From: an uncultured virus (IMG/VR IMGVR_UViG_3300021964_000019)
Taxonomy: Duplodnaviria > Heunggongvirae > Uroviricota > Caudoviricetes
Virus record (IMG/VR): IMGVR_UViG_3300021964_000019
Length of the DNA stretch: 64,000 nt
Direction: 5' to 3' (one strand)
Position numbers and translations under genes: made by a program. A model generated the notes under the pieces. It did no database searches. It was not told the DNA's origin and saw nothing but the letters and a program-made list of their open reading frames with translations. Shown piece after piece: positions 10,201 to 49,101 of this stretch. Position 1 is the stretch's first letter, and each line of letters starts with the position of its first letter.

Positions 10201-13069
10201 CAGTGTTATTATTAGCAGCACCAATTGCTCCAGTGACATTTGACGCAGATACTGTGTTAAGAGCGCGTAGAGTGATACGAGAATCAGTTGCACGTGAAAT
10301 TTCGTAGAACTGACCATTAGACAGACCGCCAATTTCAACACCTTTGTCACGAATTTCAACAGTTCCATTCATGAGTGCATGCACACCACACTGATAGTAG
10401 AGTGTGTGAGGAGTAGAAGCACCTACTGCAAATACTACATTTCCAGTTTCGGAACGTGAGTTTGATACTCCTGTGGTATACTCTCCTACATATCCTCCAG
10501 CCGAGTATCCAGCTCCGTTATCAGTAGTAAAGTAGAATGGATGTCCAGAAGCATTTAAATCAAATCTATATGTTTCGCCACGATAGAGAGTGAGTGACGG
10601 GTTTGAGATGTTATCACCAATATCATACTCTGTGAATAAAAATGCTGCAGATCCATCCGCAGTAATTTGATACACACGATTGCCTTCATCATTACCTTCT
10701 GCAAAATACTGAGCACGAGCTGTACCAGAGATTTTGTGGTTTAGAATGTAGATTGAGTTGTAGAGCGAGTTTTGAACACGATACTCAATTGAAAAGGCAC
10801 TTGGAAATGACTGAATGTCATCTGTATTCGGAGTGACTGCTAGAGTCACTTTAATTATGTCTGCGGTGACTACTGTAACAGTTGCCTCAATAGTGGCCTG
10901 ATTGATAGTAGTTGAGTTACCAGTAGAGTCAGAGAAAACGAAACGTTCTCCTGCTGCATACTCTGTTGACGGAATTACAAGAAATACTGTGGCTCCAGAA
11001 GCGATACCGTGATTCGGAGCATAGATGGTGTTTCTGGCTGATGTGAGTGTTCTTGAAAATATATAGAATATCTCTGAAGCAGTTCCTGGTGTTACTGTAG
11101 AAGAGTTATAACCTACATTAAAACTGCCTGCTTCGTCTGTGCTAGCAAGAGGATAGTTATACTGTGCAGCAATAGTTCCGTGTCTGCCTTTTTCTCGCTG
11201 ATTTGCTAGATACGAAAACTGTTCTGAGGAGTATGCGTAGGTGCTCGACGGATCGTCTCCCTGAAACGCGATAAGACGATCTGGAGCTACTAGTCCTGCT
11301 CCATAGGCTTCACCATAGAGGTCAGATCCTGAATAAGAAAAATCAGCCTCTGTGGTAGGAGCTACGGTATATGTATTTGTAAGATACAAACGATAGTAGA
11401 TATAACTCACTGACGAACGGATATAGATCGACCAACGCATATAGGTGTTAGAACCTGATGTGTAGACAGAGTTACCATTCAACTCTAAGTTAGGATAGAT
11501 ATACCCATTATATCGTTGATAGTAGTTTCTCGCAGGTGTGTTGTATTGAAAGTAGTGATACATAAACTCACGATAACCGCCTAAATCACCATAGGTGTAG
11601 ATATTGTTTACACGAACGGTTCCAATGGGATTTGAAAAGTAGGATGAGAGGTTAATTGTGCGCAGTGAGTATGAATTCTTTGGATTATTCATATAGAAGT
11701 ATCCTGCATAACGATTCTCTGTACCTCCAGCAGTTGAAGTATATATTGTACGACGTGTCTGTCCAGTAGACGAGTAGATGCGATATACAAGTCCAAGACG
11801 GCACAAGCCATAGGTGTTAAGAGGAGTGGTGAGATTCACCTTTGAGGTGCGCGCAATATCTGAGTAGAGCTCAAAAGTATCATCATCAATGCGTGTCACA
11901 TAGTAGACAGTTCCATCAGTCATGCCACCATCACTCTCGCCTTTGCGCGGAGTGTTAAAGAGTAGGCAGAAGTTGCTGTAGAGTCCGTGCGCAGTCCAAG
12001 TGATTTGATCTGTGGCAGCGTTGACTGTGCCAGATGAGAGATAGAGTGAGTGTGTTGATTCCCAGTCATAGGCTACCACTGGTCCTGCCTGATAGGTTCC
12101 ACGACCTGTATCAGTATTTGAAGTGATGTTTGAGGTGAGTGTAAAATAGGTGTCAGTATCAATTGTGGGACGATTGTCAGCCTCATTTGCGGTAGAGGCT
12201 GAGTTAGCGAGTTCTAGTGTTTTTGGTCCCACTGTGTTGCGCACATAGAGTTTTGTGTTAGCTTGAAAACCATGAGTCTCATCTGTGGTCACAGTGATGG
12301 TAGACGGAGTACCCGCATCTGTTTTTGCACCACCTGATGTGCTCACTGGAATAGGCGATCCTTCAAAGAATCGAGCCGCTGTGAGAGTGGTGTAGGATCC
12401 TGAAATGTCACCAGTGGTTGATGCTGCCACGTCCAGTTCAAAGAAGAATGTGAGAGTGTCTGAAACTCCTGAAATAATAAAGAAACCTTCTGCCTGATAG
12501 TCACTCACACCTTGCACAGAGATTGGATTACCAATGCTCAGTCCGTGCGGAGTGGTGGTGATCACCTTTACCTGTTTTGATCCTGCAGTAGCTGTAACTG
12601 ATGTCACACCCTCGACAGGTGTTCCGCCAGTTTCTGCATACACTGTGGGAATGTTATTGACTAGCTGTGAGGTTTCCCACTTAGTAGACTGTAGTCCATA
12701 CTCAAAGTCAGTATCAATGAGGTTGCCAGGATTTGACACACGTAGCTTGCCGACAGCGTCTAAGAGGTCGTCGGTGGGTGAAAATGTCTCACCCTCATGA
12801 TTTTCTACTAGAATCTGCAGTGCATCATTGGCAGTATGTCCTAATGAGCTGCAGTTGGTGGATAGTTGGATTTGCGTTTCTTCACTTAACTGATCATAGT
12901 AAACTTGCACATACCCTTTTGTGGAGTCAGCAAAGTTATAGATAATGTCATTGTTGTTGCCAACGTTCGTGATCAATAACAGACGTTCTGCTAGAATGTT
13001 ATCATCTAGAAAAACAGTGTTAGTTGAGGGATCGTAGCGATACTTATTTAAGTGAAGTTTTTTAGCCAT
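7298..13069 (-). CDS. Large (1923 aa) virion structural protein with an internal cupredoxin-like domain
   Basis: LRVSNPGNLIDTDFEYGLQ and RYQSGKG motifs typical of marine-phage structural proteins; HGL/HGF repeats; GHPFY...YYQCGVHALM. Confidence 0.7.
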   Translation of the reverse strand: MAKKLHLNKYRYDPSTNTVFLDDNILAERLLLITNVGNNNDIIYNFADSTKGYVQVYYDQLSEETQIQLSTNCSSLGHTANDALQILVENHEGETFSPTDDLLDAVGKLRVSNPGNLIDTDFEYGLQSTKWETSQLVNNIPTVYAETGGTPVEGVTSVTATAGSKQVKVITTTPHGLSIGNPISVQGVSDYQAEGFFIISGVSDTLTFFFELDVAASTTGDISGSYTTLTAARFFEGSPIPVSTSGGAKTDAGTPSTITVTTDETHGFQANTKLYVRNTVGPKTLELANSASTANEADNRPTIDTDTYFTLTSNITSNTDTGRGTYQAGPVVAYDWESTHSLYLSSGTVNAATDQITWTAHGLYSNFCLLFNTPRKGESDGGMTDGTVYYVTRIDDDTFELYSDIARTSKVNLTTPLNTYGLCRLGLVYRIYSSTGQTRRTIYTSTAGGTENRYAGYFYMNNPKNSYSLRTINLSSYFSNPIGTVRVNNIYTYGDLGGYREFMYHYFQYNTPARNYYQRYNGYIYPNLELNGNSVYTSGSNTYMRWSIYIRSSVSYIYYRLYLTNTYTVAPTTEADFSYSGSDLYGEAYGAGLVAPDRLIAFQGDDPSSTYAYSSEQFSYLANQREKGRHGTIAAQYNYPLASTDEAGSFNVGYNSSTVTPGTASEIFYIFSRTLTSARNTIYAPNHGIASGATVFLVIPSTEYAAGERFVFSDSTGNSTTINQATIEATVTVVTADIIKVTLAVTPNTDDIQSFPSAFSIEYRVQNSLYNSIYILNHKISGTARAQYFAEGNDEGNRVYQITADGSAAFLFTEYDIGDNISNPSLTLYRGETYRFDLNASGHPFYFTTDNGAGYSAGGYVGEYTTGVSNSRSETGNVVFAVGASTPHTLYYQCGVHALMNGTVEIRDKGVEIGGLSNGQFYEISRATDSRITLRALNTVSASNVTGAIGAANNNTVTYFVDIETPLGSAVTTASITKVEFRGDFGNQNEYVVMSFSDGDEYFVGTSGQDTSNYLTEGFFGTKNISQILKTEGGKVGFDVTINPTSQVNFGRYLAGNKYYEIRFTVSGDAGTVTLNTASTSGKQEFIVDSVVGAYDGVFPITTTPSPKTFTFESDFKIPRRHYDFISSNVDTGTGVITLIDDHNLVTGEELTYSPGQNDSILTAGEGGNVFAISITANTFALADSSQNALNNSKLSLTAPTGTHTVRSDGIVKLVTGTGLISVAANGTSVTGTGTSFLTDFKRFDDIYIPTDGYIQPFTVDQITTDSNMTLYDATPALAANVTYQYSTQLILRPDGYSLHLPFDGGVDITAGTSPNSKITRQTRKYFRYQSGKGIQNSVAINFNPAKIMQDLIKTSGNVATVNTQEAHNLKVGDEITIDGAVVTTGNNYFNGDFAVSETANDFQFKYVMEAEPTQAKAGGFPTYVRKSWLDSYVRTGMFDDQNGFFWEFDGQKLYCVRRSSTLQIAGSVNVTRGSQVVEGVLTSFTTQLSRDDKVVIRGQTYQIVEVSSDLRMVVQPAYRGVTAAKVKVTKTVDTRIPQDEWNLDVADGTGPSGFVLNTTKIQMAYSDFSWYGAGKIRFGFKDQKGHVKYVHEFRHNNRLNESYFRSGNLPGRYEIENGPQATTAPTLFHFGTSVIMDGTFDDDKAYLFTRQSRPMAYTNGGSSSFTSSAVSTFEQITLNGKRVYVYSIPVSNVNAAATTVGDQIRDASNANLPEGTYVTQIKVDGSNSKIYTNYPALATQPSAAIYNDISSGATITVGEQEAIDLTRPLPLVSLRLAPSVDSSLTGSVGEREIINRMQLALKQAGITTNQGVEVFLIINALPSQLSFEDADKPSLSEIIEHSAGETLTGGTTILATKASAGSVEIDLAELLELGNSILGGDGIFPAGPDLLTVAVQPQSTASVTYSTPFEVSGKISWSESQA

Positions 13070-13077
13070 CTCAGTTC

Positions 13078-13275
13078 CTATCCTAGTGCAATTGCAAGAG
13101 CGGTGGCAGTTGCTTGATCAACTCCGCCTGCTGAAGTCCATGTGTTAGATGCACGAACCTGTAGTCCTGTTCCGACCACATAGTTGACATCACCGTCTGA
13201 AGCGCCTGTAGGCAGTTCGCTAGTAGAATTGCGTATTTCGACGACTGCGTGTCCTCTTAGTTGTGAATAGTCCAT
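13078..13275 (-). CDS. Small structural/adaptor protein ending in ALAIALG
   Basis: GGAGG SD; the C-terminal AIALG motif is common in phage fibre modules. Confidence 0.65.
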   Translation of the reverse strand: MDYSQLRGHAVVEIRNSTSELPTGASDGDVNYVVGTGLQVRASNTWTSAGGVDQATATALAIALG

Positions 13276-13287
13276 CTACACCTCCTA

Positions 13288-13325
13288 TATACTTACTACT
13301 ATACTATATTTCTCACGACCAGTCC
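13288..13325 (-). promoter_or_regulatory. Promoter for the leftward structural operon
   Basis: Minus strand TGGACT-N17-TATAGT upstream of the 13275 start. Confidence 0.5.
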
Positions 13326-13419
13326 AATCTTATTTTATGATATTTCTACACACTCTCCACCGCGTTTGATCTCCGATCAAAACCACAGTGCCACTCTTAA
13401 AAATTGAAAATGCACTACT

Positions 13420-14101
13420 ACACGAAGTGTTTTTAACTGCATTTGCTGTAGCATTATATGCATTATCATTTTTAAACTATTGCACACAAATATAAAATCT
13501 GTTACTCTACTATTGTGTCTACAGAAAATGAGTAGATCGCATACTAGTTGAACGCTGGAGTGCGGAGCTTCACTGCTGTTTCCTCTATGTTCACACTATG
13601 TTTCATCGCGTTATTGTAACTACGCAAGGCAACGAAGTTGCATCTACTGTGTTACAACGCGTTTCACCCGAAGGGTGAACTAGATGAACTACTTGCAATG
13701 TAATTGAATCTTTACGCGAAGCGTCTATCTTATTTTATACTGATATATAATAAACTATATCTTCCCTCAAAGCCGACGAAGGAGGCTTGATTTATTCATC
13801 AGAATAATCGCTCAAATGAACCGCGAACGGAGTTCGCAACGGTGGCGCAGCGTGCAAGCGATCTTCAACTTTTTTTGGTTGTGAGGGTGCAAAAATTCCA
13901 TTTTATCCTGATTTTTCCTTATTTTTACGATATTCCAACTTTTTTTACTTTTTATTCACTAGGCGCACGAAGTGCGCCGTATGTACACTTGCCAACAGGT
14001 TATTTGACATGCTATGATATAAGGGTGAGGAGGGAGGGAGACCTTGCGCAATAGACTAGGCTAAATAAGACTTCGTCTTTTTGAGAGCGCACGTAGTGCG
14101 C
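13420..14101 (+). repeat. Non-coding array of C-GNA-G triloop hairpins
   Basis: Hairpins at 13420, 13562, 13629, 13663, 13714, 13770, 13823, 13962 and 14087 (+), and 14067 (-). Confidence 0.75.
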
Positions 14102-14124
14102 GAGCTGTAGGAGACGGTGCGCAT

Positions 14125-14152
14125 AAAAAAAGAGGGAGATTGCTCTCCCTCT
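14125..14152 (-). terminator. Rho-independent terminator after A2 paralog 1
   Basis: AGAGGGAGA/TCTCCCTCT stem, GCAA loop on the minus strand, T7 tail. Confidence 0.85.
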
Positions 14153-14178
14153 AGTCTCCCCCTTTTATGAAAGGCTTA

Positions 14179-14487
14179 CTACTGAGCTACTACACCGATC
14201 AAGCGAGTGATAGCATCTTTAGTAGCACCTTCGAAGCCCTGAACATCAAAGCCAGTTGCTTCAAGGTCGCGAAGAAGTTCCTTCTTAGTTGGACCTTCCT
14301 GCTTACGAGCCTGCGCCTTCGGCTTGGCTACATAAACGCCTTCGCGAACGAGTTTAGAACGAACTGAACGCACGCTCTTCTCGATAGACGCAGCGATATC
14401 GTCAATCTCTACGCCATTCTGATACTGCTCAACAATCTGAGCAGTCATTTCTGCAGTGTAGTTCACTGCCTTTTGAGTATCAGCCAT
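14179..14487 (-). CDS. A2: T5 A2-like pre-early DNA-binding protein (paralog 1)
   Basis: IAASIEKSVRSVRSKLVREGVY resembles the T5 A2 IAK...SVRSKL motif; AGGAG SD. Confidence 0.7.
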   Translation of the reverse strand: MADTQKAVNYTAEMTAQIVEQYQNGVEIDDIAASIEKSVRSVRSKLVREGVYVAKPKAQARKQEGPTKKELLRDLEATGFDVQGFEGATKDAITRLIGVVAQ

Positions 14488-14559
14488 ATTACATCTCCTT
14501 ATGACTATGCTTTGGTGAGATCAGTCGTGAGGCGATCTCTTCCCTCATCTTCTTTATAT

Positions 14560-14588
14560 ATAATAGATGAAATTTATCTTTTAAGCAA
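14560..14588 (-). promoter_or_regulatory. T5-type strong promoter; a second tandem promoter (TTGCAT-N17-TACTCT) lies near 14653-14681
   Basis: Minus strand TTGCTT-N17-TATTAT. Confidence 0.7.
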
Positions 14589-15083
14589 GTGAAAAGTGAC
14601 GGTAGTGTGCACTTAATGGTTAGAACATTCATCTGTCTTAATCGTTATATAGAGAGTAACACATTTGAGGGCATGATGCAAGCGCAAATTGATTGTCTAC
14701 TTGCATCCATGCTGCAACATGATGTAACAAGACTTGGTGCTATCTAGCGCACACATTCATTTTCTACTTGACAACGAGGGGGGACTTGTGCTACACTACT
14801 GGCGCGGATACGATTGACCATGCATTTTAATAGTAGATCTACTACTATGGGCCGGTGCCAAAATAAGACTTACAATAGATCGACCACTTACTAGCAGCCG
14901 CATTAACTTTCTACTTGACAATCGTCGAACTACTACTGGTGCCGAGAGGCACAGTTAAAGTAAAATATTAAGAACGCCTCGTAGTGTTCGCGGCAACTTT
15001 AAGTTTGCTGCTTAAGTGCTTGGATTGATTTAATTTTGTTGGTTGAAGAACACCAGCGACATCATTGTTTTCATTGACAAAAC

Positions 15084-15113
15084 GCCGCCCCGGGGCTGGG
15101 TAAGTTGTTGATT
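15084..15113. repeat. Cassette junction element 1 (GC core plus IHF-like box)
   Basis: GCCGCCCCGGGGCTGGG-TAAGTTGTTGATT, a perfect YAA-N4-TTGATW match. Confidence 0.75.
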
Positions 15114-15124
15114 ATGAAGGGTTT

Positions 15125-15331
15125 TTAGCCCCCTTCATAAATTGGTAATTGTAGAGCATTGCCAACATCGCTGACCTCATAGTTTTTGCCAATGTTAGCC
15201 TGCTGTTCTGCTGTTTCGTATGGACAGCCATTCACGCCACAAGGCCAAATTGCAGGCTTGCCATTATCCCAACAGTTGATTCCACAGATATCACAAGTGC
15301 CTGTTTTAGTTCCAAAATTTTGTTTAGCCAT
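15125..15331 (-). CDS. Small Cys-rich (Zn-binding?) protein, 68 aa
   Basis: Start MAKQNFG after GGAGG; CDIC...C...C...C. Confidence 0.6.
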   Translation of the reverse strand: MAKQNFGTKTGTCDICGINCWDNGKPAIWPCGVNGCPYETAEQQANIGKNYEVSDVGNALQLPIYEGG

Positions 15332-15803
15332 TGATTGAATTAGCCTCCATGTGATTGTTAGCAGTGACAGCATCACAAGCAATGATGCCGATTTTAGAAA
15401 CTTCTTCTCTGACTTCTGGATTATCATCCCACATAATCTTTTTGTGGTTTTTCCAACGAGTGAGGAAAAAGTCTTGAAGCAATTCACGCTTCATCTGACC
15501 ATCTGGACGAGTATCACCGACTGGTCTTGAAATAATGTTAGCGCATCCAATAGCGTGTTTAGCAAAGAAACGCATATCATCAGAGGTGAGAGTTCGAGCA
15601 GTGCAGAACATTACAGGAACGCCTTCACGCTTTAATTTTCTGAAAAGTTTAGCAAGAGGAAGCAGAGTATCTTTTTCGATATTGTTCCAAGTTGCTAGTC
15701 TCAACCATTCGCTAAGAATTAACCGACCATTCTCATCACGAGGTGTGCGATGTTCAGAGTTGATTAGAGTTCCGTCAAGGTCAAAGATAAATACAGTTTT
15801 CAA
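15324..15803 (-). CDS. HAD-superfamily phosphatase (PNKP-phosphatase/dmp-like), paralog 1
   Basis: FDLDGT motif I, CTAR motif II, K motif III, WDD motif IV. Confidence 0.85.
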   Translation of the reverse strand: MKTVFIFDLDGTLINSEHRTPRDENGRLILSEWLRLATWNNIEKDTLLPLAKLFRKLKREGVPVMFCTARTLTSDDMRFFAKHAIGCANIISRPVGDTRPDGQMKRELLQDFFLTRWKNHKKIMWDDNPEVREEVSKIGIIACDAVTANNHMEANSING

Positions 15804-15835
15804 AATAGTCTCCTTATTTGTTTTTCTTATATATA

Positions 15836-15948
15836 GTTATAAACGAATTTTCACCAAATTGCAAGCACAAAATGGTCTTTAGACGCATTTTTCCTAGTTA
15901 GTGTTGCAAAAATGTCACAGCGCCCCGGGGGCCCGTAAGTCATTGAAA
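15836..15948. repeat. Minus-strand promoter plus cassette junction element 2
   Basis: TTGCAA-N17-TATAAC (-); TGTTGCAAAAATGTCACA (15902-15919); GCGCCCCGGGGGCCCG; TAAGTCATTGAAA. Confidence 0.75.
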
Positions 15949-16221
15949 TCGTTGACTTATTCGGTCTTCATCTCGCCAGATTGCTTCATCTGATTGATCA
16001 TAGTGATCTTGATCAGGATATTCTTCTTCCGAGAAGTGTTCATCCCATTCGTCTGGCAAGATGCCAGTCATGATGAATTCCCTGTCATCATCCGACAGGT
16101 GAGGAAACGCATCTTGGATGAGGATGCCGCCAGCCTCCCATGCCTCTAGTGTTTCTCGTGAAACATCAATTTCGCGAGTGTTGGTTGCACCAGAGATGAT
16201 TGATTTTTTAGTGATAAGCAT
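15940..16221 (-). CDS. Conserved hypothetical phage protein (LIQDAFPHLSxDDREFIMTG family)
   Basis: Start MLITKKS after GGAGG; the motif is familiar from environmental phage proteins. Confidence 0.65.
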   Translation of the reverse strand: MLITKKSIISGATNTREIDVSRETLEAWEAGGILIQDAFPHLSDDDREFIMTGILPDEWDEHFSEEEYPDQDHYDQSDEAIWRDEDRISQRFQ

Positions 16222-16233
16222 AGAGCATCCTCC

Positions 16234-16277
16234 AAGAAAAAGAAAAAAGGAAAGAGAGAGAGGCTTGCGCCTCTCTC
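16234..16277 (-). terminator. Terminator after A2 paralog 2
   Basis: GAGAGAGGC/GCCTCTCTC stem, GCAA loop (-), pyrimidine-rich tail. Confidence 0.7.
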
Positions 16278-16283
16278 GCACGA

Positions 16284-16595
16284 TTATTGCTTGACGACAC
16301 CCATCAGAGCAACAATCGCTTCTTTAGTAGCACCCATCATGCCATTGATAGGAAAGTCAGAAGGCAGAGTATCTTCCAAATCGCGAAGCAATTCCTTCTT
16401 AGTAGGCTCATCGCTCTTGCGAGCCTGTGCCTTTGGCTGTGCGACATAAACGCCCTCACGAACCAATTTTGACCGAACAGACCGAACAGTTTTGCCAATG
16501 GCTTCTGCGATTTCATCAATCGCAACGCCATCTTGATAGAGGTCAACAGCCTTAGCAGTCATTTCAGGTGTGTAGTTTACAGTTTTTTCAGACAT
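16284..16595 (-). CDS. A2: T5 A2-like DNA-binding protein (paralog 2)
   Basis: MSEKTVNYTPE...VRSVRSKLVREGVY...PTKKELL. Confidence 0.7.
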   Translation of the reverse strand: MSEKTVNYTPEMTAKAVDLYQDGVAIDEIAEAIGKTVRSVRSKLVREGVYVAQPKAQARKSDEPTKKELLRDLEDTLPSDFPINGMMGATKEAIVALMGVVKQ

Positions 16596-16669
16596 ATTTT
16601 TCATCCTTTGTCTAGAGTTGAACTTCATTTTATAGATAGAATATATCACAAAAATATCCAAAAGTCAAG

Positions 16670-16816
16670 TCAGTAATTTGACAGATTGCATCTTTTTGAG
16701 TCAATCTTTTGACGCTTGCGGTTGTAATGCTTTTTGGACAGCACAACCTGTGGGCGAAATTCTTTCACCACACGCGCCACTGGATTTCTTCTGGTTATCT
16801 TTGTTTTCTTCATCAT
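16670..16816 (-). CDS. 48-aa basic ArfA-like peptide, apparently leaderless (not in ORF track)
   Basis: MMKKTKITRRNPVARVVKEFRPQVVLSKKHYNRKRQKIDSKRCNLSNY*; extended -10 (TGTGA-TATATT) ends 7 nt before the ATG. Confidence 0.55.
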   Translation of the reverse strand: MMKKTKITRRNPVARVVKEFRPQVVLSKKHYNRKRQKIDSKRCNLSNY

Positions 16817-16867
16817 GAGTTTAATATATCACAAAAATAGAATCTTTCTCGTCTGAATGCGACTAAT

Positions 16868-16957
16868 TGTGTTCAGTATACGACAAAATGCAAATAAAAT
16901 ATTCAATGATTTCAATAGGTTAGCGGCCGCGGCCCGGGGGCTGGTAAGTGCTTGAAA
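16868..16957. repeat. Cassette junction element 3
   Basis: TGT-N12-ACA (16868-16885); TTTCAATAGGTTA, 22-bp GC core (GCGGCCGCGGCCCGGGGGCTGG), TAAGTGCTTGAAA. Confidence 0.75.
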
Positions 16958-16964
16958 TTGCAGG

Positions 16965-17594
16965 TCAAATCACGCTGTCAATTTCATTCACCACAATTCT
17001 CAAAGCCTCATCACGACCCTCAAAGCGGTTATCCATGTTCACAATATTCCAGTCGCCAAGTTCAAACATTGCTTCTTTTTTGAGAGTAAGAGCATCAAAG
17101 TTTGAAACAGCCTTTGCATCATTAGGCGAGTGCTTCCAATAGCGTAGAGGGTCATGCTCTCTGCGTGTCAACAGTGTGCGTTGCTTGGCTTCATCTATTG
17201 ATAGCCAAAGTTTGACAAATAGAATTGGGCGTTCTTGTTCCCATTTCATCACCTTTGCCATAAAATTCCAGTATTGTTTTTGAGAACACCAGCCCATGAC
17301 AGGTTGAAGCAGTGCGCGAGAATAATGCGAGCGGTCATAGAAAACCATTTCACCTTTTTTAGGAAGCAATCTTTGCCATTCAGCAAGCCATGATTTCATC
17401 ATGCGTTTTGTTGGCATAAATGACGGCACAATGCGATGAGCATATGGCGGCAAGTATCTGGTCAATTCGCGGATTGTACCAGATTTGCCAGCACCATCAC
17501 GACCCTCTAATAATACAGCCACACGATAGCCTTTGTCATGGATAGTTTCAGCAAGTTCATTTAGGCGAATAAGATTGTCAAGATTAGTTTTCAT
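16965..17594 (-). CDS. ppk2: Polyphosphate kinase 2 family protein
   Basis: Walker A LEGRDGAGKSG, YDRSHYSR (DRSWY-like), KLWLSIDxxxQ, DPLRYWK-SPND lid. Confidence 0.9.
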   Translation of the reverse strand: MKTNLDNLIRLNELAETIHDKGYRVAVLLEGRDGAGKSGTIRELTRYLPPYAHRIVPSFMPTKRMMKSWLAEWQRLLPKKGEMVFYDRSHYSRALLQPVMGWCSQKQYWNFMAKVMKWEQERPILFVKLWLSIDEAKQRTLLTRREHDPLRYWKHSPNDAKAVSNFDALTLKKEAMFELGDWNIVNMDNRFEGRDEALRIVVNEIDSVI

Positions 17595-17645
17595 TGTGTT
17601 CATCCTTAATTGAAAGAGTTGGGGGAATTTCACCCCCATATTTTT

Positions 17646-17951
17646 TTATTGCTCGTAGTGAGCCAAGATAGCCAACAGACAGGCTTTAGTTGCACCCATC
17701 AGACCATCAGCAGGAAATGGAACGACTTTTTCAAGTTCAATCATAATTTCCTTTTTGGTTGGTTCATCAGACTTTTTAGCAGTCTGTTTTGGTTGTGTCA
17801 CATAGACACCTTCACGAACCAATTTTGAGCGAACAGAACGCACAGATTTTCCAATCGCATCTGCGATTTCAGAAATAGCGATTCCCTCTTGATAGAGGTC
17901 AACAGCCTTTTGAGTGAGTTCTGGTGAGTAGTTAACATTTTTTGCAGTCAT
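17646..17951 (-). CDS. A2: T5 A2-like DNA-binding protein (paralog 3)
   Basis: MTAKNVNYSPE...SVRSVRSKLVREGVY...PTKKEI. Confidence 0.7.
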   Translation of the reverse strand: MTAKNVNYSPELTQKAVDLYQEGIAISEIADAIGKSVRSVRSKLVREGVYVTQPKQTAKKSDEPTKKEIMIELEKVVPFPADGLMGATKACLLAILAHYEQ

Positions 17952-18038
17952 TTTTAACATCCTTATGACTAAGAGAGGTTTCCATTTTCAGGACTAGTCA
18001 CATGACCTTTCTTAACGCTCTCTGATTTAATATATATA

Positions 18039-18192
18039 GTTATAAACGATTTTTTCCAGAAAGTAAAGCAAAAAATGCAGTGTGATTGCATTTTTTTCGT
18101 AAAAAGCCAAAAGTGTTGTATTTATGCAACACATTTTATCAATTAAATCAATGACTTAGCCGCTCCCCCGGCCGCGCCGTAACTGGTTGATT
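18039..18192. repeat. Minus-strand promoter plus cassette junction element 4
   Basis: TTTACT-N17-TATAAC (-); AAAAAATGCA-N7-TGCATTTTTT; TGTTGTATTTATGCAACA; AATCAATGACTTA, 21-bp GC core, TAACTGGTTGATT (both perfect IHF consensus). Confidence 0.8.
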
Positions 18193-18303
18193 TCACTTAA
18201 AAATCAGCCAGTATAACGCGCCTCCCCAAATTATCGTATCAGTTGCGACCGAATAGCCAAGATAGAGACCGACAGCCAACCGCTTAAATGTATTCTGGCG
18301 CAT
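18193..18303 (-). CDS. Small membrane peptide
   Basis: MRQNTFKRLAVGLYLGYSVATDTIIWGGALYWLIFK; GAGG SD inside the upstream gene. Confidence 0.5.
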   Translation of the reverse strand: MRQNTFKRLAVGLYLGYSVATDTIIWGGALYWLIFK

Positions 18304-18523
18304 CGTCGTAGACCTCCCCAAAATCTTCCCATTCTTGCGCCCAATCTGGCTGACCATCGTCTTGCCATTGTTCGCGCTCGTCAATTTCATCAAGCGCACG
18401 ATTTAGCAGTTGCGCTTGACGCTCTGAAGGTTGAGCGTTTTCCAACAACACAACCGCCTCATGCAGTTCGTCATTGGTGAGATTTTCGATTTCGTCATGT
18501 CTCAGATTTTCAAGTTTAATCAT
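18284..18523 (-). CDS. Small acidic protein (QPDWAQEWEDFGE motif)
   Basis: GGAG SD; very acidic. Confidence 0.65.
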   Translation of the reverse strand: MIKLENLRHDEIENLTNDELHEAVVLLENAQPSERQAQLLNRALDEIDEREQWQDDGQPDWAQEWEDFGEVYDDAPEYI

Positions 18524-18576
18524 TTTTCAATTTCTCCGCTAGTTTCATCAGTCTTTTCTTATTCACAAAATGAAGG

Positions 18577-19104
18577 TCATTTCTTAGTCTGGCGATTGAC
18601 CTTTTTGACCTTACGATTAAAGGGCGTTGTTCTCCAGACTTTTTCGCCATATTTATATTCTGCATAGTTGTCACTCCCAAAATGTTGTTGACAGAAAGTT
18701 TTGATGTAGTTCAGAATTTTGCGAAAATTCCAGTTGAATTTTTTGCATATCTGAACAGCCTTCCCTTGATAGCCTCTGATTTGGTTGAGCGATACAGCAA
18801 AAATTTCAGTCCATCCAGATTTGATGCCGACAGCAATCGCATCTGTTTGAGCCTTGAAATGGTCAAGCCCTTTGCGTGCCATCATAATCTGTGACAGTTG
18901 TTCGACCAAATAAGTTTTGCGATCATCATCCATCACCAAACAGTTGTGAAAGCCAACAGTCCAACCATTGCGACCATAAGAGCGCAAAAATTCCTTGAAC
19001 CGACCTTCTGGAAAGTTGTCGCCATCCAAGCGGTGATTTCCAGTCCAGCCAGTCTTGAACAGTGTTGAATTGCCATCGTTGATTGATATAATGTAGTTAG
19101 CCAA
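18577..19104 (-). CDS. GIY-YIG/T5orf172-like endonuclease
   Basis: YII...FKTGWT...RFKE...E...GWTEIF pattern; TTG start after GAGGA; own promoter TTGAAT-N17-TATATA. Confidence 0.5.
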   Translation of the reverse strand: MANYIISINDGNSTLFKTGWTGNHRLDGDNFPEGRFKEFLRSYGRNGWTVGFHNCLVMDDDRKTYLVEQLSQIMMARKGLDHFKAQTDAIAVGIKSGWTEIFAVSLNQIRGYQGKAVQICKKFNWNFRKILNYIKTFCQQHFGSDNYAEYKYGEKVWRTTPFNRKVKKVNRQTKK

Positions 19105-19173
19105 TTTTTCATCCTCGTTTTGTTGACTCTTTATATATAGGTATTTATAGACTAATATTCAAGGTTTTGCAAG

Positions 19174-19299
19174 AAAAAAATGCGCCTCAAACGCATTTTT
19201 TTTCAAATTATCCAAAAGTGTGACATTTATGCAACAGATTTTCCCAATAAAAACAATGGGTTATGGGTCGCGCCCCCGGGGTCTTGCAAGTCATTGAAT
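19174..19299. repeat. Cassette junction element 5
   Basis: AAAAAAATGCG-N7-CGCATTTTTTT; TGTGACATTTATGCAACA; AAACAATGGGTTA, 23-bp core with CCCCCGGGG, CAAGTCATTGAAT. Confidence 0.75.
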
Positions 19300-19407
19300 T
19301 AAATAGTCTTTTCAGACTATTTATTCTTTCTGTTCTTGCGGCGATTTTTACGCTTCTGCGATCCAATCTTGCGGCGACCTTTGCCGACAGGATTTCTTCC
19401 AGTTTTG

Positions 19408-19650
19408 CTAGGCATCCCACACCTTCCTTTCTAATGTTAGTTCAAAAGTATCCATCCCCTCATCTTCAGGTTCAAAGATAATTACCTGTCCAACATCATC
19501 ACGAGTTGTCAGTTGATGTTCTATTATAGTGATGCTGAAATCACAATATTTAATTTCTGCATCTTTCTTAACAGCGTGAGCAGTAAGTTCATCTGCACAC
19601 AAGTCTAAAATTTCGCCATGCTGGTCTTTAACAATCCAAATCGTGTTCAT
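19408..19650 (-). CDS. Hypothetical acidic protein
   Basis: AGGAG SD; 80 aa. Confidence 0.65.
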   Translation of the reverse strand: MNTIWIVKDQHGEILDLCADELTAHAVKKDAEIKYCDFSITIIEHQLTTRDDVGQVIIFEPEDEGMDTFELTLERKVWDA

Positions 19651-19653
19651 GTT

Positions 19654-19815
19654 CTATATCTCCTTTTCATCAACATCAATTTCTATTTCAACAATTTCTG
19701 CTTCACCATATTCAATGCATTCGTTACAAGCCGTTGCATCATCAAAGGTTTCAGTTAGCAGTTCACATTGTTCACAACCTTCAACAGGTTTCGCAACATA
19801 AATCTTTTTCTTCAT
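19654..19815 (-). CDS. 53-aa CxxC...CxxC acidic protein (not in ORF track)
   Basis: MKKKIYVAKPVEGCEQCELLTETFDDATACNECIEYGEAEIVEIEIDVDEKEI*; AGGAG SD; promoter TTGACT-N18-TATAAC upstream. Confidence 0.7.
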   Translation of the reverse strand: MKKKIYVAKPVEGCEQCELLTETFDDATACNECIEYGEAEIVEIEIDVDEKEI

Positions 19816-19877
19816 GGTTATATTCTCCTAATTAGATAATATAGTTATAACATAAACCAAAGGCAAAAGTCAACAAC

Positions 19878-19997
19878 AAAATTCATTTAATCGCATTTTT
19901 ATGTCTAACTGTTGCAAATATATCACACCTGTCTTAGTTTCTCTAATGATTTCAAGGACTTACCGACTTGCCCCGGGCAGCCTGTAAGTGGTTGATT
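19878..19997. repeat. Cassette junction element 6
   Basis: CGCATTTTT; TGTTGCAAATATATCACA (19910-19927); TTTCAAGGACTTA, 22-bp core with CCCCGGG, TAAGTGGTTGATT. Confidence 0.8.
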
Positions 19998-20053
19998 ACA
20001 TACGCTTTTTACCTAAAAATAGTAGAGATACCACCGGCGCCGATTGCGGCTGG

Positions 20054-20257
20054 CTATGCGCCTATGGTCAAGCCATAGATCGCAATGCCAAGCAAGATTA
20101 TATTTGTAAGCAAAATCCATTTATCTTGTCGCTGGTATCCATGCACCATCCATGCAATAGCGGCACCGCAACCCATAGCCAAAGCCCATTGGGGCGCGCC
20201 ATTTGCCAGCGCGCTCATTTGCCAGATAACCAAAACAGTTCCAATCATTCCAAACAT
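20054..20257 (-). CDS. Small membrane protein (3 TM)
   Basis: Hydrophobic; TAATG coupling. Confidence 0.65.
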   Translation of the reverse strand: MFGMIGTVLVIWQMSALANGAPQWALAMGCGAAIAWMVHGYQRQDKWILLTNIILLGIAIYGLTIGA

Positions 20258-20439
20258 TAGCGAAACCCTCTAATAGTTAAATGCGAAAACATTAAAGCCG
20301 AGATAATGCCCATCAGCATCATAGCCACACCGATAATCAGATTATGCGTTTCTGGCAATTCAGCAATAGCCGCACCGAACACAATCAAAGACCATCCAGA
20401 CATAGCGCAAAGCGCAAAGAAAACTCGAATTAAAAACAT
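20257..20439 (-). CDS. Small membrane protein (2 TM)
   Basis: Hydrophobic; TAATG coupling. Confidence 0.65.
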   Translation of the reverse strand: MFLIRVFFALCAMSGWSLIVFGAAIAELPETHNLIIGVAMMLMGIISALMFSHLTIRGFR

Positions 20440-20906
20440 TATGCAAACCTTTCTGCAATTTTTTCTGGATTGATAACCGCAATTCCAATCTTGCGAAGTG
20501 ATGAACGAACCGAAGCGGCATCATCAAACATAACCTTTGAGGCTTTTTTGAATTGCTTTAGATTGAACAGTGAAGCAAGTTGTTTTGCTTTCAGTTGTCC
20601 ATCAGGCTCATTGTTACCATCTGGACGACTGATAATCTTATCAGGACAAATGCCCTCATTCATCAGAAATTCAAAATCAGCAAAGGTCATATTGCGAGCA
20701 GTGCAGATTAAAACATAATCGCCACGCTTTTGACGCTTGCGGATTTGTTGAGCCAATGGCAGAACCTTATCCTGAAAAATCTTTTCAGGCGTTGCGTTTT
20801 CTTTCCAAGCGGCAAGATTGAGCGTGCCATCTGGAAGTGTAGCCTGACGATGGCTAGAGTCGATGATCGTGCCATCCATGTCGAAGATTGAGATATTTTT
20901 AATCAT
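20439..20906 (-). CDS. HAD-superfamily phosphatase, paralog 2
   Basis: FDMDGT, CTAR, IISRP...PDGQLK, FDD; clearly homologous to 15324-15803. Confidence 0.85.
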   Translation of the reverse strand: MIKNISIFDMDGTIIDSSHRQATLPDGTLNLAAWKENATPEKIFQDKVLPLAQQIRKRQKRGDYVLICTARNMTFADFEFLMNEGICPDKIISRPDGNNEPDGQLKAKQLASLFNLKQFKKASKVMFDDAASVRSSLRKIGIAVINPEKIAERFA

Positions 20907-20929
20907 GTTTAATTCCTTTCTATATATTA

Positions 20930-21054
20930 TATATAATCATTCTTAGGGTAAAAATCAAGGGGTAAATGAAAAAAAGTTTCGTTTGTTTTCAATGGGTTAT
21001 CATTTTTATTTCTCAATGAATTCAATGGGTTAGCCTGCCCCCGAGGGCAAGGGC
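20930..21054. repeat. Minus-strand promoter plus cassette junction element 7
   Basis: TTGATT-N17-TATATA (-); tandem TTCAATGGGTTA boxes; core GCCTGCCCCCGAGGGCAAGGGC. Confidence 0.7.
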
Positions 21055-21402
21055 TTATGCCCTCGCCTTGCGGTTTTCTTTCATCCGCTTGCGTTTGATT
21101 GAGATGCGGAAAACCTCGCGGTTTTCATTCACCATGTTAAGATATTCGCCAAGCGTTTGCGTCATGCTTGGGGCTTGGCGGATTGGCAGTGTAACCTCAA
21201 CGGCTTGTTTCACATTGTTGCAAACCGAGCAAAGTGTTTGCAGATTAGCAAGTTCATTCTTGCCGCCTTTAGTCACGGGCTTTTTATGATCGCCTTGCAG
21301 TGAAGCGCCAGTAGTGTCGTGATGACCACAAGCGCGGCAAGTCCAGTTGTCGCGTGTAAAACAAGCCTCGCGAAGCGCCCAAGTAAGTTTAATCCGTTTC
21401 AT
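21055..21402 (-). CDS. HNH endonuclease
   Basis: RDNWTCRACG...DHKKP...GG-N...NLQTLCSVCN; GGAGG SD; promoter TTGATT-N17-TATATT. Confidence 0.9.
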   Translation of the reverse strand: MKRIKLTWALREACFTRDNWTCRACGHHDTTGASLQGDHKKPVTKGGKNELANLQTLCSVCNNVKQAVEVTLPIRQAPSMTQTLGEYLNMVNENREVFRISIKRKRMKENRKARA

Positions 21403-21817
21403 GTCATGTCCTCCGTTGTTCATAGGTATAATATAGGTTCAATCAATCATTAAATCAACCCCAAAAATAAAAAAAATGTGTCAACAATTTGACAGGGGGT
21501 AGGGCGGTTATGAGGACTATGTCAATCTTTTGACGGCGGGCCCCTTCTCCAGAGCCTTTCACAGGGTAATTTTTGGAAAAACCTAAGAAAGTCGCCTGTG
21601 TTATTAACACCAATGTGTCATTTCCTATGAAATTTTTACATATATATTATAAGGTGTAAAAAAATTTAACATCAAAGGTCTGGCTGCATTGTATTTTTTT
21701 ATAGACTTGTTTCTGCATTTGATGTCGTCTAAAACCTGCATTTTATTTTGATGGAAAAATTTTGCTTGACGAGGGTGCAGATTTCTGCGACAATTACTTT
21801 ATATAAAGGAGTATTGG

Positions 21818-22039
21818 ATGGTACACGCTTTTTTATTGGTATTGCTGCTGGGAGACAAACCAGTTAGATTTGAACCAATGTATTTTAGAAGTATAGACAG
21901 TTGTAATTATTTTGCTGCTAGTGTAGTGAAGCGCTATGGTAATTATAACTATTCTTACATAGTACCAGAAGAGCACAGAGCAACTGCGTACTGTAAACCA
22001 GTTTATATTAGTGAAGAGACCGAAACTCTGTATGATTGA
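21818..22039 (+). CDS. Hypothetical protein
   Basis: AAGGAG SD; promoter TTGACG-N17-GACAAT upstream. Confidence 0.7.
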   Translation: MVHAFLLVLLLGDKPVRFEPMYFRSIDSCNYFAASVVKRYGNYNYSYIVPEEHRATAYCKPVYISEETETLYD

Positions 22040-22550
22040 AGAACATTTTGAAAATTTAGATGATCCACACACAGGACATTTAAAAGCTCATCATTTTGAA
22101 GTTTTTAGAGATATAATCAAAATAACTAAAGCTAAAACAATTTTAGAGCTTGGATTCTGTGTAGGACATTCTTCGATTATGTGGTTAGAAACTAATCCAG
22201 AAGTTTCAGTAGTTTCAACTGATATTGAAGTAAGACAAGGTTCGATTGATTATATTAATCAGCATTGGGGTTCTAGGTTTAAGTTTTTAAATTTAAATCA
22301 CTCTCTTATAAACCGTCAGTTTGATGTTGGTCAATTTGATTTAATATTTATTGATGGTAATCATGAGAGAGGACCTGCTTCTTCAGATATGGAAGCTTCT
22401 ATGAAGCTAAAGCCTACTTATATTGTATTAGATGACACTTCTCACTCAGCACACTTATATTTAAGAGAGTTTGCTAGAAACTATGGCTGGAGAGAAGTAA
22501 AGCACTATGAAAATCATTGGGGACAAACGTTATACGAGGTGGGAAAATGA
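22032..22550 (+). CDS. Class I SAM-dependent methyltransferase (Methyltransf_24-like)
   Basis: ILELGFCVGHS motif I; FDLIFIDGNH; IVLDD. Confidence 0.85.
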   Translation: MIEEHFENLDDPHTGHLKAHHFEVFRDIIKITKAKTILELGFCVGHSSIMWLETNPEVSVVSTDIEVRQGSIDYINQHWGSRFKFLNLNHSLINRQFDVGQFDLIFIDGNHERGPASSDMEASMKLKPTYIVLDDTSHSAHLYLREFARNYGWREVKHYENHWGQTLYEVGK

Positions 22551-23299
22551 ATAACGTAATTAACTACTATAGTAGTGTTGGTGAGTCACATTCTATTGAG
22601 TTTCATGATCTTTTAGATCAAGGACATAATATGGATATGATGATCCGTAATGGCACTCTTTTTAGTCGTCCTGATCATAACTACTCGGCACTTTTAAAAT
22701 ATTTGAAACCTGGAGATGTAGTGTATGACTGTGGCGCCTACATTGGAACTTTTGCAATACCTTTTGCACTTGAAGGAATGACAGTTCATGCTTTTGAAGC
22801 ATGGCCTGGTAACTCAGAAAGATGTGCAAAAAACTTTGCACCATATGATATTACCTTACATGAGATTGCACTATCTGATAAAAACGAAACTAAAGAAGCA
22901 CAGATAGTTCATTGTATGGGTTGGGAAAATCATGATACACAAGAGTTCAAGCATATTACATATGCACGTTTAGACGATTATATAGAACAGAACGATTTGC
23001 CTGATCCTCAACTAGTAAAAATGGATATTGAAGGCATGGAATCTCTAGCGATGTTAGGCTGTGGGCGACTCCTCGAAGAGGTTCGTCCTATTTGGCAAAT
23101 GGGACTACACTATCAGGTTGATCATGCGGTTGATATGCCAACCTTTCCTGGTTGGGTAGATGTATTAGATGGTGGGTTCGACTGGACAAATATTACTCGT
23201 CTAGATTATATAGTTTTAGACTACTTGGGACAAGAAGTAGGTTCATCAGCTCTTACACGCGGCGGAGAGTTGATCTTTGTCCCAAAGGAGTTGAGATGA
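22547..23299 (+). CDS. FkbM-family methyltransferase
   Basis: YDCGAYIG, AFEA, ALSD, LVKMDIEGME. Confidence 0.85.
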   Translation: MNNVINYYSSVGESHSIEFHDLLDQGHNMDMMIRNGTLFSRPDHNYSALLKYLKPGDVVYDCGAYIGTFAIPFALEGMTVHAFEAWPGNSERCAKNFAPYDITLHEIALSDKNETKEAQIVHCMGWENHDTQEFKHITYARLDDYIEQNDLPDPQLVKMDIEGMESLAMLGCGRLLEEVRPIWQMGLHYQVDHAVDMPTFPGWVDVLDGGFDWTNITRLDYIVLDYLGQEVGSSALTRGGELIFVPKELR

Positions 23300-23742
23300 A
23301 AGTAGGATTCACTTGTTCCACTTTTGATCTGTTACACGCAGGTCATGTTCAAATGCTACGTGACGCTAAGTCACAATGTGACTATCTTATATGCGGATTG
23401 CAAGTTGATCCTAGTGTAGATAGGCCATCGAAGAATCGTCCTGTACAAACTGTTGTAGAACGTTATGCACAGCTTAAAGCAGTAACATATGTAGATGAGG
23501 TCATTCCATATGGTACAGAGCGAGACTTGGAAGATATACTTCAAATGTATTCAATTGATGTGCGTATACTAGGTGAAGAGTATCGCAATCGTGATTATAC
23601 TGGCCGTCAGATATGTCTAGATCGAGGCATTGAAATATATTTCAATCAACGTGATCACCGTTTCTCTACCACGGCCCTTCGCATCGCTGTTGCACAAGAA
23701 GAGATACGTCGTCACGAAGAGTTTCAAAGGAGCAAACTATGA
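23296..23742 (+). CDS. tagD: Glycerol-3-phosphate cytidylyltransferase-like nucleotidyltransferase
   Basis: FDLLHAGH (HxGH), YVDEVIPY, RDHRFSTT. Confidence 0.85.
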   Translation: MKVGFTCSTFDLLHAGHVQMLRDAKSQCDYLICGLQVDPSVDRPSKNRPVQTVVERYAQLKAVTYVDEVIPYGTERDLEDILQMYSIDVRILGEEYRNRDYTGRQICLDRGIEIYFNQRDHRFSTTALRIAVAQEEIRRHEEFQRSKL

Positions 23743-48801: not shown

Positions 48802-49101
48802 ATGGATACACAAAGAGAATTAGATCAGCTTCAAAACGATGTAGAGACATTGCACGAACGTAGCCAAAATACAAAACTCGAACTGTCCAAGCATGAAGCA
48901 ATTTGTGCTGAAAGATATGATAAAATCATGGAAAATTTTGAAAGACTTCAAGAGCAAATTCAGTATACTTTTGAAGAAGTACAAGATTTAAAAGTATTAG
49001 CTACTCAAGGTAAAACTAGTTTAAAAACTTTAATCTTTATCGGCATGTTTATCGGAGGTCTTGCTGGATTTATTTATACTATTTTAAATATGTATAGATA
49101 A
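48802..49101 (+). CDS. Coiled-coil plus C-terminal TM protein (XhlA/holin-like)
   Basis: HEAICAERY motif and a C-terminal hydrophobic helix. Confidence 0.55.
   Translation: MDTQRELDQLQNDVETLHERSQNTKLELSKHEAICAERYDKIMENFERLQEQIQYTFEEVQDLKVLATQGKTSLKTLIFIGMFIGGLAGFIYTILNMYR

Follow-up and report, generated by a model that had tools for sequence, protein, structure and literature searches.

Why are the small genes between about 15 and 21.4 kb of the uncultured virus IMGVR_UViG_3300021964_000019 arranged as cassettes, each joined to the next by a copy of the same GC-rich intergenic element, and what does that element do? We examined this question computationally in a 64,000-nucleotide stretch of the record (the window), where seven copies of the element, E1 to E7, delimit an array of genes on the minus strand, and in related viral loci. 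Among the relatives, the cassettes proved to be reassorted, and their junctions lie within the element or beside it.

The window is AT-rich (30–46% G+C per kb) and encodes a siphovirus tail module, a large terminase (49101–50369) and a portal protein (50726–51973), the latter two being 41 and 38% identical, respectively, to those of the Demerecviridae (T5-like phages). The nearest record, G001, has a length of 173,519 bp and lacks window positions 12204–17600, and the full genome is therefore estimated at about 179 kb. By its sequence, the window phage is an uncultured estuarine siphovirus of roughly this size, distantly related to T5. No close relative was found in the GenBank phage set; with the region as query, megablast gave no match and blastn one 81-nt match. 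The public runs containing this stretch are mostly estuary metagenomes, with no RNA run among them. Relatives were gathered using two cassette proteins as queries, which yielded 68 IMG/VR loci (numbered with L), and G001 stood in for the full genome of the window phage in genome-wide searches.

The whole 64 kb was scanned for 12-mers with at least 11 G or C. The scan returned nine stretches, seven of which are the cores of the array (15082–15100, 15918–15936, 16922–16944, 18159–18180, 19265–19283, 19970–19982, and 21037–21048); two more were found at 20031 and 21532. CCCGGG occurs five times in the window, always inside a core (15089, 15924, 16933, 19275, and 19972). Aligned on the minus strand, on which the local genes are encoded, the seven copies proved to be one element. 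An nhmmer profile built from them matched only those sites, on the minus strand, with E-values from 5e-12 to 2.5e-8, and the weaker matches in the window were all the same seven sites on the opposite strand. The copies at 16.9, 18.2, 19.3, and 20.0 kb have two inverted arms, with TTR-to-YAA spacers of 22, 21, 23, and 22 bp, respectively. The copies at 15.09 and 15.93 kb keep the arm on the side of the upstream gene, and the copy at 21.04 kb keeps the arm on the promoter side. In the latter (E7), the HNH stop codon (21055–21057) lies inside the element, and where the stop-side arm would be there is the 3′ end of the HNH gene. The tail of E1, TTTTGTCAATGAAAACAATG, recurs in the diverged relatives L004, L021, and L041. 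Since the array opens with an element that lacks the stop-side arm and closes with one that lacks the promoter-side arm, the stop-side arm can be regarded as the end of a cassette and the other arm as the start of the next.

The element begins 0–15 nt after a stop codon in six of the seven copies and 45 nt after it in the 20.0-kb copy. It is located 80–170 nt upstream of the next start codon and 70–110 nt upstream of the promoter. Each interval contains 2–3 minus-strand open reading frames (ORFs), and at all six junctions a sigma70-like −35/−10 pair, which is a consensus match only, scores 8–10 of 12 and ends 7–78 nt before the start codon. The promoter scan of the whole region gave 31 promoter-like sites compared with 23.9 ± 4.8 expected. 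The initial annotation had described seven GC-rich cores, five of them with CCCGGG, an element usually abutting the last stop codon of the upstream cassette, and intervals each with their own minus-strand sigma70 promoter and 1–3 genes, and had read four copies as flanked by inverted IHF-like boxes at 21–23 bp and three as one-sided. The scan, the site counts and direct reading of the copies bear out this description, the promoters as consensus matches. The profile search, which gave no other site in the window, also speaks against a background frequency of the motif.

Some junctions carry, downstream of the element, a conserved box TGTTGCA-N5-GTCACA, which is inverted once (inverted repeat I13). 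Some further carry a unit of an A-tract, a GCG hairpin and a T-tract, which is followed by the sigma70-like promoter and then the ribosome-binding site. This second intergenic unit was seen at 18075–18100, 19176–19205, and 15869–15892, where the hairpin is a short GCG/CGC or TGCA one; it directly precedes the −35 hexamer TTGCAA and is separate from the GC-core element. It is a candidate for a more ordinary terminator-plus-promoter, similar to the PeSLs (promoter early stem-loops) of T4-type phages. The right arm together with the TGTTGCATAAAT box was also considered as a promoter and rejected, as the spacings and the −10 matches were inconsistent between junctions.

The 68 relative loci contained 144 element sites with 81 distinct sequences, of which 66 had both arms. 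A half-element pattern matched G001 four times, always in the array, and matched five larger relative records (218 kb) 29 times, always inside arrays; the backwards-read control gave no match in either case. The strict pattern was found in 38 stretches of IMG/VR, corresponding to about 25 contigs of this clade, and twice in 596 Gb of prokaryote genomes, both times in short contigs of metagenome-assembled genomes with phage cassette genes. These results showed the element to be real, tied to its positions, constrained in sequence, and limited to this clade.

The element is about 60–65 bp long and dyad-symmetric. On the sense strand it reads (YCAAYGAWW) TCAA-N4-TTA-S, GC core, S-TAA-N4-TTGA (WWTYATTGA), where the parentheses mark a second TCAAYGA-like half-site behind each arm, 9 bp further out. 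The core has 87% G+C, and the spacer between TTR and YAA measures 19–23 bp in 55 of the 66 two-armed copies. In 45 of 62 copies, CCGG and the stop-side arm are 7–8 nt apart; the distance to the other arm is 8–11 nt. Some relatives have an element that is perfectly symmetric about CCGG. CCSGG is present in 57 of the 66 cores, whereas shuffling of each core gives 25.9 ± 4.0. The pattern that picked the arms contained TCAA and TTA, whose constancy in these 66 copies is thus partly by construction. The N4 positions vary, with preferences for nnAC on one side and nGRS on the other, while positions −1, −2, and −6 in the flank of the arms are A or T in 64–66 of the 66 copies.

The arms had been called IHF-like in the initial annotation. 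We take WATCAANNNNTTR to be the strict IHF consensus. It occurs 11 times in the window, and 4 of these sites lie within 45 nt of a core, compared with 0.11 expected. For the relaxed form, WWTCAANNNNTTA, the window has 14 sites, 9 of which are this close to a core (0.14 expected). In terms of consensus, the IHF-like label therefore holds. The outer letters of the arms are fixed, the middle is free, and the whole has dyad symmetry; the element thus looks like a site that a protein would bind as duplex DNA, its conserved positions being those specified by the IHF consensus.

To compare the arrays, ORF families were mapped on 21 loci. The same units recurred in them, namely HAD (with small ORFs), NDT-like with DUF6899, F11 (with or without F30), A2-like with PPK2, basic peptide with A2-like and F20, and F9. 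These units are ordered differently from locus to locus. In the window, F11, A2-PPK2, and basic-A2-F20 follow one another, L007 has basic-A2-F20, F11, and A2-PPK2, and L015 has A2-PPK2 followed by F11. Among 62 junctions with a family-assigned gene on both sides (the near-identical L003 excluded), 40 distinct neighbor pairs were counted, and in six loci 53 pairs of junctions shared homologous DNA on one flank only. When the window was compared with L004, L007, and L015 by BLASTN, the matching blocks started and stopped at elements, and L004 has an extra 1-kb NDT-like/DUF6899 cassette between two element copies. At the F20–F11 junction of L007, the left part of the F20 junction of the window and the right part of its F11 junction are joined inside the core. 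In Logan contigs from the same estuarine samples, divergence sets in at the core edges at 15920, 18162, and 21035, and one contig carries other sequence between the box beside E4 and the box beside E5. Of the two explanations offered by the initial annotation, gene-cassette shuffling is thus the one supported, with the same cassettes found in permuted orders, and the gene-content breakpoints it had proposed to look for at the cores were found in or next to the element.

To locate the exchanges within the junctions, 16 three-way comparisons were made, each of a junction with its upstream-side and downstream-side partners, and 12 were informative. Measured in nt from the CCGG centre, the switch points were −48/−45, −22/−17, −12/−10, −5/−3, −5/−1, +23/26, +26/30, +27/31, +33/42, +38/39, +54/85, and +81/85. 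There is no single crossover point, and exchanges occurred throughout the element and the adjacent conserved box. Junctions with unrelated neighbors keep exactly one element with normal spacing, which favors homologous exchange in register.

Taken together, the sequence data make it probable that the element, specific to this clade and bound by protein, marks boundaries and at the same time provides the homology through which modular cassettes are shuffled. It would act as double-stranded DNA, with two inverted arms around a GC core centred on CCSGG, the stop-side arm moving along with the cassette upstream and the other arm with the regulatory region of the cassette downstream. A sequence-specific architectural protein would bind the arms. 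The best guess is host IHF, given that the arms conserve what its consensus specifies and vary in N4; an A2-like helix-turn-helix (HTH) protein of the phage is the alternative. No gene for a protein of the HU/IHF family was found in G001. With its arms bound, every junction would separate units of strong transcription. Since the same motif lies in register at all junctions, copies that are not allelic, whether in one genome or in two relatives infecting the same cell, would recombine through homology or short homology and thereby swap, insert or delete whole cassettes while leaving genes intact, as proposed for the T4 PeSLs.

Several observations weigh against this boundary-and-linker model. 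The three-way switch points are not independent, since several pairs descend from the same ancestral exchange, and 4 of the 16 comparisons were uninformative. The ends of BLAST blocks fell within 20 nt of elements in 9.1% of cases compared with 3.5% at random, a modest 2.6-fold enrichment, because blocks also end where intergenic DNA has diverged; this raw measure was replaced by the flank-sharing and three-way switch analyses. Intergenic breakpoints are expected from selection alone, whatever the mechanism, and the conserved stretch is short for RecA-type recombination. Judged by their sequence, the arms hold conserved positions (nnAC/nGRS and the outer TCAAYGA) beyond what an IHF consensus needs. 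In addition, the strong retention of CCSGG is not explained by the model, and distant relatives have true stem-loops at the junctions, which leaves room for a terminator-like role of the core.

This last point leads to the explanation that survives best among the alternatives, in which the GC cores would terminate transcription, or stabilise the RNA as stem-loops, at the 3′ ends of cassettes, corresponding to the stem-loop half of a PeSL, and the AT-rich arms would be mere context. The position after stop codons and before the next promoter would suit this role, and PeSL stem-loops often hold polyG-polyC tracts, according to PMC2839356. In the distant relatives L040, L044–L047, and L050–L053, the stop-side arm is replaced by GC-rich stem-loops of GGGCCC/GGCCAC-type units, the core reads GGCCCCCGCSGC without CCSGG, and the promoter-side arm (TAAGTCATTGA..AAAGGGTTTTTT) is kept, as at L040:4005–4100 and L052:9440–9545. 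The hairpin z-score was −4.1 for the L052 copy and −2.1 to −2.5 for the L040 and L047 copies. Over all 81 copies the mean z-score was −1.0, with 18 copies below −2 and 16 above 0, and the seven window copies ranged from −2.2 to +1.0, E6 (−2.2) being the only one that folds clearly better than its shuffles. The cores of the window's subclade permit just 3–5 GC pairs. No U-tract follows any of the seven window copies, and the terminator scan, which looks for a GC hairpin with a U-tract, gave nothing at the seven cores. The N4 positions of the arms that would pair in a hairpin did so in 89 of 264 cases, compared with 108.7 ± 7.0 with re-paired arms; there is therefore no compensatory pattern, and the arms do not covary. 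A search against Rfam at E ≤ 1 gave two sub-threshold chance matches, neither at an element. The A-tract/GCG hairpin/T-tract unit, moreover, lies separately between the element and the promoter at three junctions. The element is thus not a conserved hairpin in the window's subclade, and the terminator explanation as a whole seems unlikely.

A dedicated site-specific or transposon-like system, resembling an integron array or abutted inverted-repeat ends with exchange in the GC core, is rather improbable. Inverted copies of the arm do flank each cassette, the array has a defined head (a half element by the nuclease gene) and a type of tail common to diverged relatives, some of the switches lie inside the core (−5 to −1, −5 to −3, and −12 to −10), and the loose contigs end exactly at core edges. 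The switches as a whole, however, are spread over about 130 nt (−48 to +85), with 4–5 of the 12 outside the element. The 173.5-kb G001 gave no match to Phage_integrase (PF00589), for which the positive controls succeeded in 14 of 14 genomes, nor to Resolvase, and no tyrosine or serine recombinase was found in the window either. Known core sites have a crossover region of 6–8 bp, far shorter than the 21-bp spacer here; the conserved hairpin that attC requires is absent, and the cassettes have their own promoters, sigma70-like by consensus. An excision system, for whose circles the initial annotation had proposed a search, likewise found no support, the switches being scattered and no recombinase being found in G001.

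The initial annotation had called the array a pre-early region, which invites comparison with that of T5. A HAD paralog matches the deoxynucleoside-5′-monophosphatase (Dmp) of T5-like phages, which is annotated inside their direct terminal repeat. The three HTH paralogs matched T5 A2 in BLASTP with E-values of 2e-7 (cassette 4), 4e-6, and 7e-3. The left terminal repeat of T5 has HNH, A2, and dmp in this order on one strand, and the window array has the same order on one strand, again with strong promoters (here sigma70-like by consensus). The assignment thus found support in homology, and it is reasonable to regard the 15–21.4-kb block as a pre-early-type region. The annotated distribution of paralogs over different cassettes was likewise confirmed, with two HAD and three HTH genes found. 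On the other hand, no homolog of T5 A1 was found in G001 in a search without a positive control, and the element profile gave no match at E ≤ 10 in the left terminal repeat of T5 or the pre-early region of Vibrio phage AG74. According to the preprint 10.1101/866236, T5 has large repeats, some inverted and some direct, that are located in three untranslated blocks and contain DnaA boxes in pairs, among them the inverted repeats IRC and IRD of the injection-stop (iss) regions; the window element is not of this type.

The T5 region lies in a terminal repeat, and for the window the sole hint of this is unitig depth, all runs being contigs. In run X1, the depth from 14.92 to 21.0 kb is about twice that of the flanks. 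This pattern was not reproduced in run X4, where the right flank is deeper than the array, or in run X13, where depth is uneven. Unitigs of public runs break at 14914–14934 and 20984–21010, which are possibly the ends of a terminal repeat. Past the last element, the stretch 13300–15060 is mostly non-coding and has two CTAGC..TTCTACTTGACAA copies (14744 and 14891) and three AATAGTAGATCTACTAC-like words. An analogy with the T5 nick site was tried and rejected; the one T5 nick considered, at 9748/9749, adjoins a GC palindrome with GCGC behind it, but only three GCGC sites of the window lie in cores.

Another explanation takes the CCSGG of the core as a deliberate target of a nuclease, either the HNH protein encoded first in the array or, in some relatives, the MvaI/BcnI-family enzyme. 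The resulting nicks or breaks would set off recombination, label the DNA that enters first or bring pre-early expression to an end. Of the 12 CCSGG sites in the window, 11 lie in cores; the single site outside compares with 10.3 ± 3.3 in dinucleotide-preserving shuffles, none of 200 being as low. The loci of 20 relatives have 108 sites in elements and 33 outside, where 97.5 were expected, and two of the three CCCGGG sites of G001 are in cores. Furthermore, an MvaI/BcnI-family restriction-endonuclease gene (Pfam E-value 5.2e-12, above the cut-off) forms an array cassette in three relative lineages, in L007 at the head position held by HNH in the window, and the annotated major nick of T5 adjoins a GC-rich palindrome in its terminal repeat. 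Other GC palindromes of the window are nevertheless depleted too, to a lesser degree (GGCC, 26 vs. 64; CCGG, 19 vs. 34), while GCGC and GCSGC are not, which suggests pressure from a restriction system. The MvaI/BcnI gene (PF15515) was not detected in G001 in a search without a positive control, and the enzyme of the relatives, putative in its specificity, had no match among PDB sequences. E7 and the cores of the distant relatives lack CCSGG. We consider such a target improbable.

In the most far-reaching reading, a nuclease would drive cassette exchange in the DNA that a T5-like phage injects first, and the array would be a programmed generator of diversity. Two bends of the IHF type would expose a core with a CCSGG that is nearly unique in the genome of about 179 kb, the head-of-array nuclease (HNH, or the MvaI/BcnI-family enzyme in some relatives) would nick or cut it, and repair against a co-infecting relative or another copy would swap whole host-takeover cassettes. 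If true, the array would be integron-like in function, without an integrase, but on the present sequences this is a long shot. Least likely of all is a periodic nucleoprotein scaffold in which bound IHF or A2-like proteins would pace, hold or protect the first-injected DNA, as an analogue of the T5 injection-stop region: although the region is homologous to the first-step-transfer DNA of T5, its A2-like genes are triplicated and the doubled depth of one run fits a terminal repeat, the spacing of the elements follows gene content (0.7–1.2 kb here and 0.4–2.7 kb in relatives) and is not periodic, the T5 iss is built of other repeats and DnaA boxes (10.1101/866236) and T5 has no copy of the element, the depth pattern failed in a second run, and two-step injection is not established for the window's phage.

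As a boundary element and linker, the motif finds its closest counterpart in the PeSL mobile regulatory cassettes of T4-type phages. As described in two reports (Arbiol et al., 2010, PMC2839356; Comeau et al., 2014, PMC4122927), PeSLs are conserved intergenic motifs between a stop codon and a strong sigma70-like promoter, contain a polyG/polyC tract, cluster in a region of small non-essential early genes, and bound insertions, deletions, and replacements among relatives. These features are paralleled here, the strong promoter as a putative one, and indels and replacements between the present relatives were indeed bounded by the motif. The differences are that the present lineage is a siphovirus with a T5-like packaging and head module, that its element is a dyad-symmetric duplex motif with IHF-like arms and a CCSGG centre, with no stable stem-loop or terminator in the window's subclade, and that it lies well upstream of the promoter, whereas the PeSL motif is interleaved with it. 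Terminator activity and mini-circles belong, in the same sources, to the PeSLs; the element described here is known from its sequence alone. The initial annotation did not recognise the architecture as described. The element itself was not found in full-text literature searches, supplements aside, but promoter-bearing cassettes exchanged at intergenic motifs are, as a concept, that of the T4 PeSLs, which the annotation itself had cited.

Two other systems are similar in part. Integron arrays also have cassettes of about 1 kb in one orientation, an imperfectly palindromic element (attC) abutting stop codons, and an order that varies between relatives. The array described here differs from them in having no integrase, no conserved single-strand hairpin, and no fixed exchange point, and in the cassettes' own promoters, and it does not qualify as an integron. 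Bacterial repetitive extragenic palindromic (REP) sequences and the bacterial interspersed mosaic elements (BIMEs) with IHF sites (RIB/RIP) are extragenic, are located just after stop codons, and have been proposed as boundaries of domains or transcription units. They share with our element this position and the combination of GC-rich palindromic DNA with an IHF consensus. In BIME-1, however, two REPs surround one IHF site, whereas here IHF-like arms surround a GC core, and the present element has just the two strict matches in prokaryote genomes reported above, both in phage-cassette fragments.

The elements, the cassettes they delimit, and the nuclease genes of relatives are listed in Table 1. 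Two basic peptides of 48 and 34 aa, rich in R and K, open or close cassettes, and one of them has a weak DUF7230/phrog_20887 match.

Table 1. Junction elements and genes of the cassette array in the window, and MvaI/BcnI-family genes in relative loci.
Feature	Position	Strand	Description
HNH endonuclease, array head, family F10	21055..21423	-	Pfam HNH, 4e-11
E7, first of array	21007..21062	-	GC core and promoter-side arm only; nhmmer E 2.5e-8
HAD phosphatase paralog 2, Dmp-related	20439..20906	-	Similarity to Dmp of T5-like phages
Cassette 1 small ORFs	20054..20439	-	60 aa (20257-20439); 67 aa, family F4, membrane-like (20054-20257)
E6	19937..20005	-	Both arms; 22-bp core with CCCGGG; nhmmer
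Cassette 2	19313..19815	-	ORFs of 53 and 80 aa; 34-aa highly basic peptide (19313-19417)
E5	19238..19305	-	Both arms, degenerate (TTG for TTA, ACAA for TCAA); 23-bp core with CCCGGG
Cassette 3	18193..19104	-	F11 (175 aa, no family match); F30 (79 aa); 35-aa hydrophobic ORF, stop codon abutting E4
E4	18133..18197	-	Both arms match strict WATCAANNNNTTR; 21-bp core with CCCGG
Cassette 4	16965..17960	-	A2-like HTH (17646-17960); polyphosphate kinase 2 (16965-17639), Pfam PPK2 4.9e-41
E3	16897..16963	-	Both arms; 22-bp core with CCCGGG; begins about 7 nt past the PPK2 stop codon
Cassette 5	15940..16816	-	48-aa basic peptide (16670-16816); A2-like HTH (16284-16661); F20 (113 aa)
E2	15895..15957	-	Upstream-gene-side arm and core; promoter-side arm replaced by inverted TGTTGCA..GTCACA box
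Cassette 6	15125..15803	-	HAD phosphatase paralog 1 (15324-15803); 69-aa ORF (15125-15334)
E1, last of array	15059..15122	-	Upstream-gene-side arm and core, then TTTTGTCAATGAAAACAATG
Third A2-like HTH paralog	14179..14487	-	Outside the element-delimited array
MvaI/BcnI-family gene	L007:4431-5042		Pfam
MvaI/BcnI-family gene	L022:7153-7758		Pfam
MvaI/BcnI-family gene	L099:6906-7514		Pfam

Outside the array, the window encodes several unusual structural genes. A single ORF of 3775 aa (25832–37159) is fibre-like, with repeated tail-fibre-type matches and an SbcC-like coiled-coil stretch, and further fibre genes follow it; the whole is unusually large for a T5-related siphovirus. On the minus strand, a virion structural protein of 1923 aa (7298–13069) has its best GenBank matches in structural proteins of cyanomyoviruses, at about 36–42% identity over about half of its length, and these matches indicate a mosaic structural module. 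Proteins of 847 and 365 aa (2350–5966, minus strand) gave weak, sub-cut-off matches (E about 1e-3) to Mtd_N, the N-terminal domain of the major tropism determinant of a Bordetella phage, and may be receptor-binding proteins. In addition, auxiliary genes lie among the structural genes at 22011–24518 and 45614–47540; they comprise two methyltransferases (Methyltransf_24 and FkbM), a phosphomannomutase-like HAD protein, two 2-oxoglutarate-Fe(II) oxygenases, and a member of a PHROG that is labelled ferrochelatase.

The modular theory of phage evolution predicted conserved linkers that let modules recombine in register. To our knowledge, clear examples of such linkers are few, namely the T4 PeSLs and the boundary sequences of lambdoid phages. 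Read as a boundary element and linker, the motif described here would add a well-delimited second case in an unrelated lineage, with the PeSL principle in a new form in T5-related phages. It would also extend the T5 pre-early module to a group of estuarine phages of about 179 kb, in which A2 has been multiplied and A1 was not found. The motif is short and recognisable, with its 144 occurrences in relatives, and the reshuffled cassettes, putatively of host takeover, are many, as the 40 neighbor pairs at 62 junctions illustrate. The array may therefore serve as a tractable system for asking whether linkers are tolerated homology or bound functional boundaries, what role IHF-like bending would have beside strong early promoters, and why CCSGG has been purged from the genome except at these joints.

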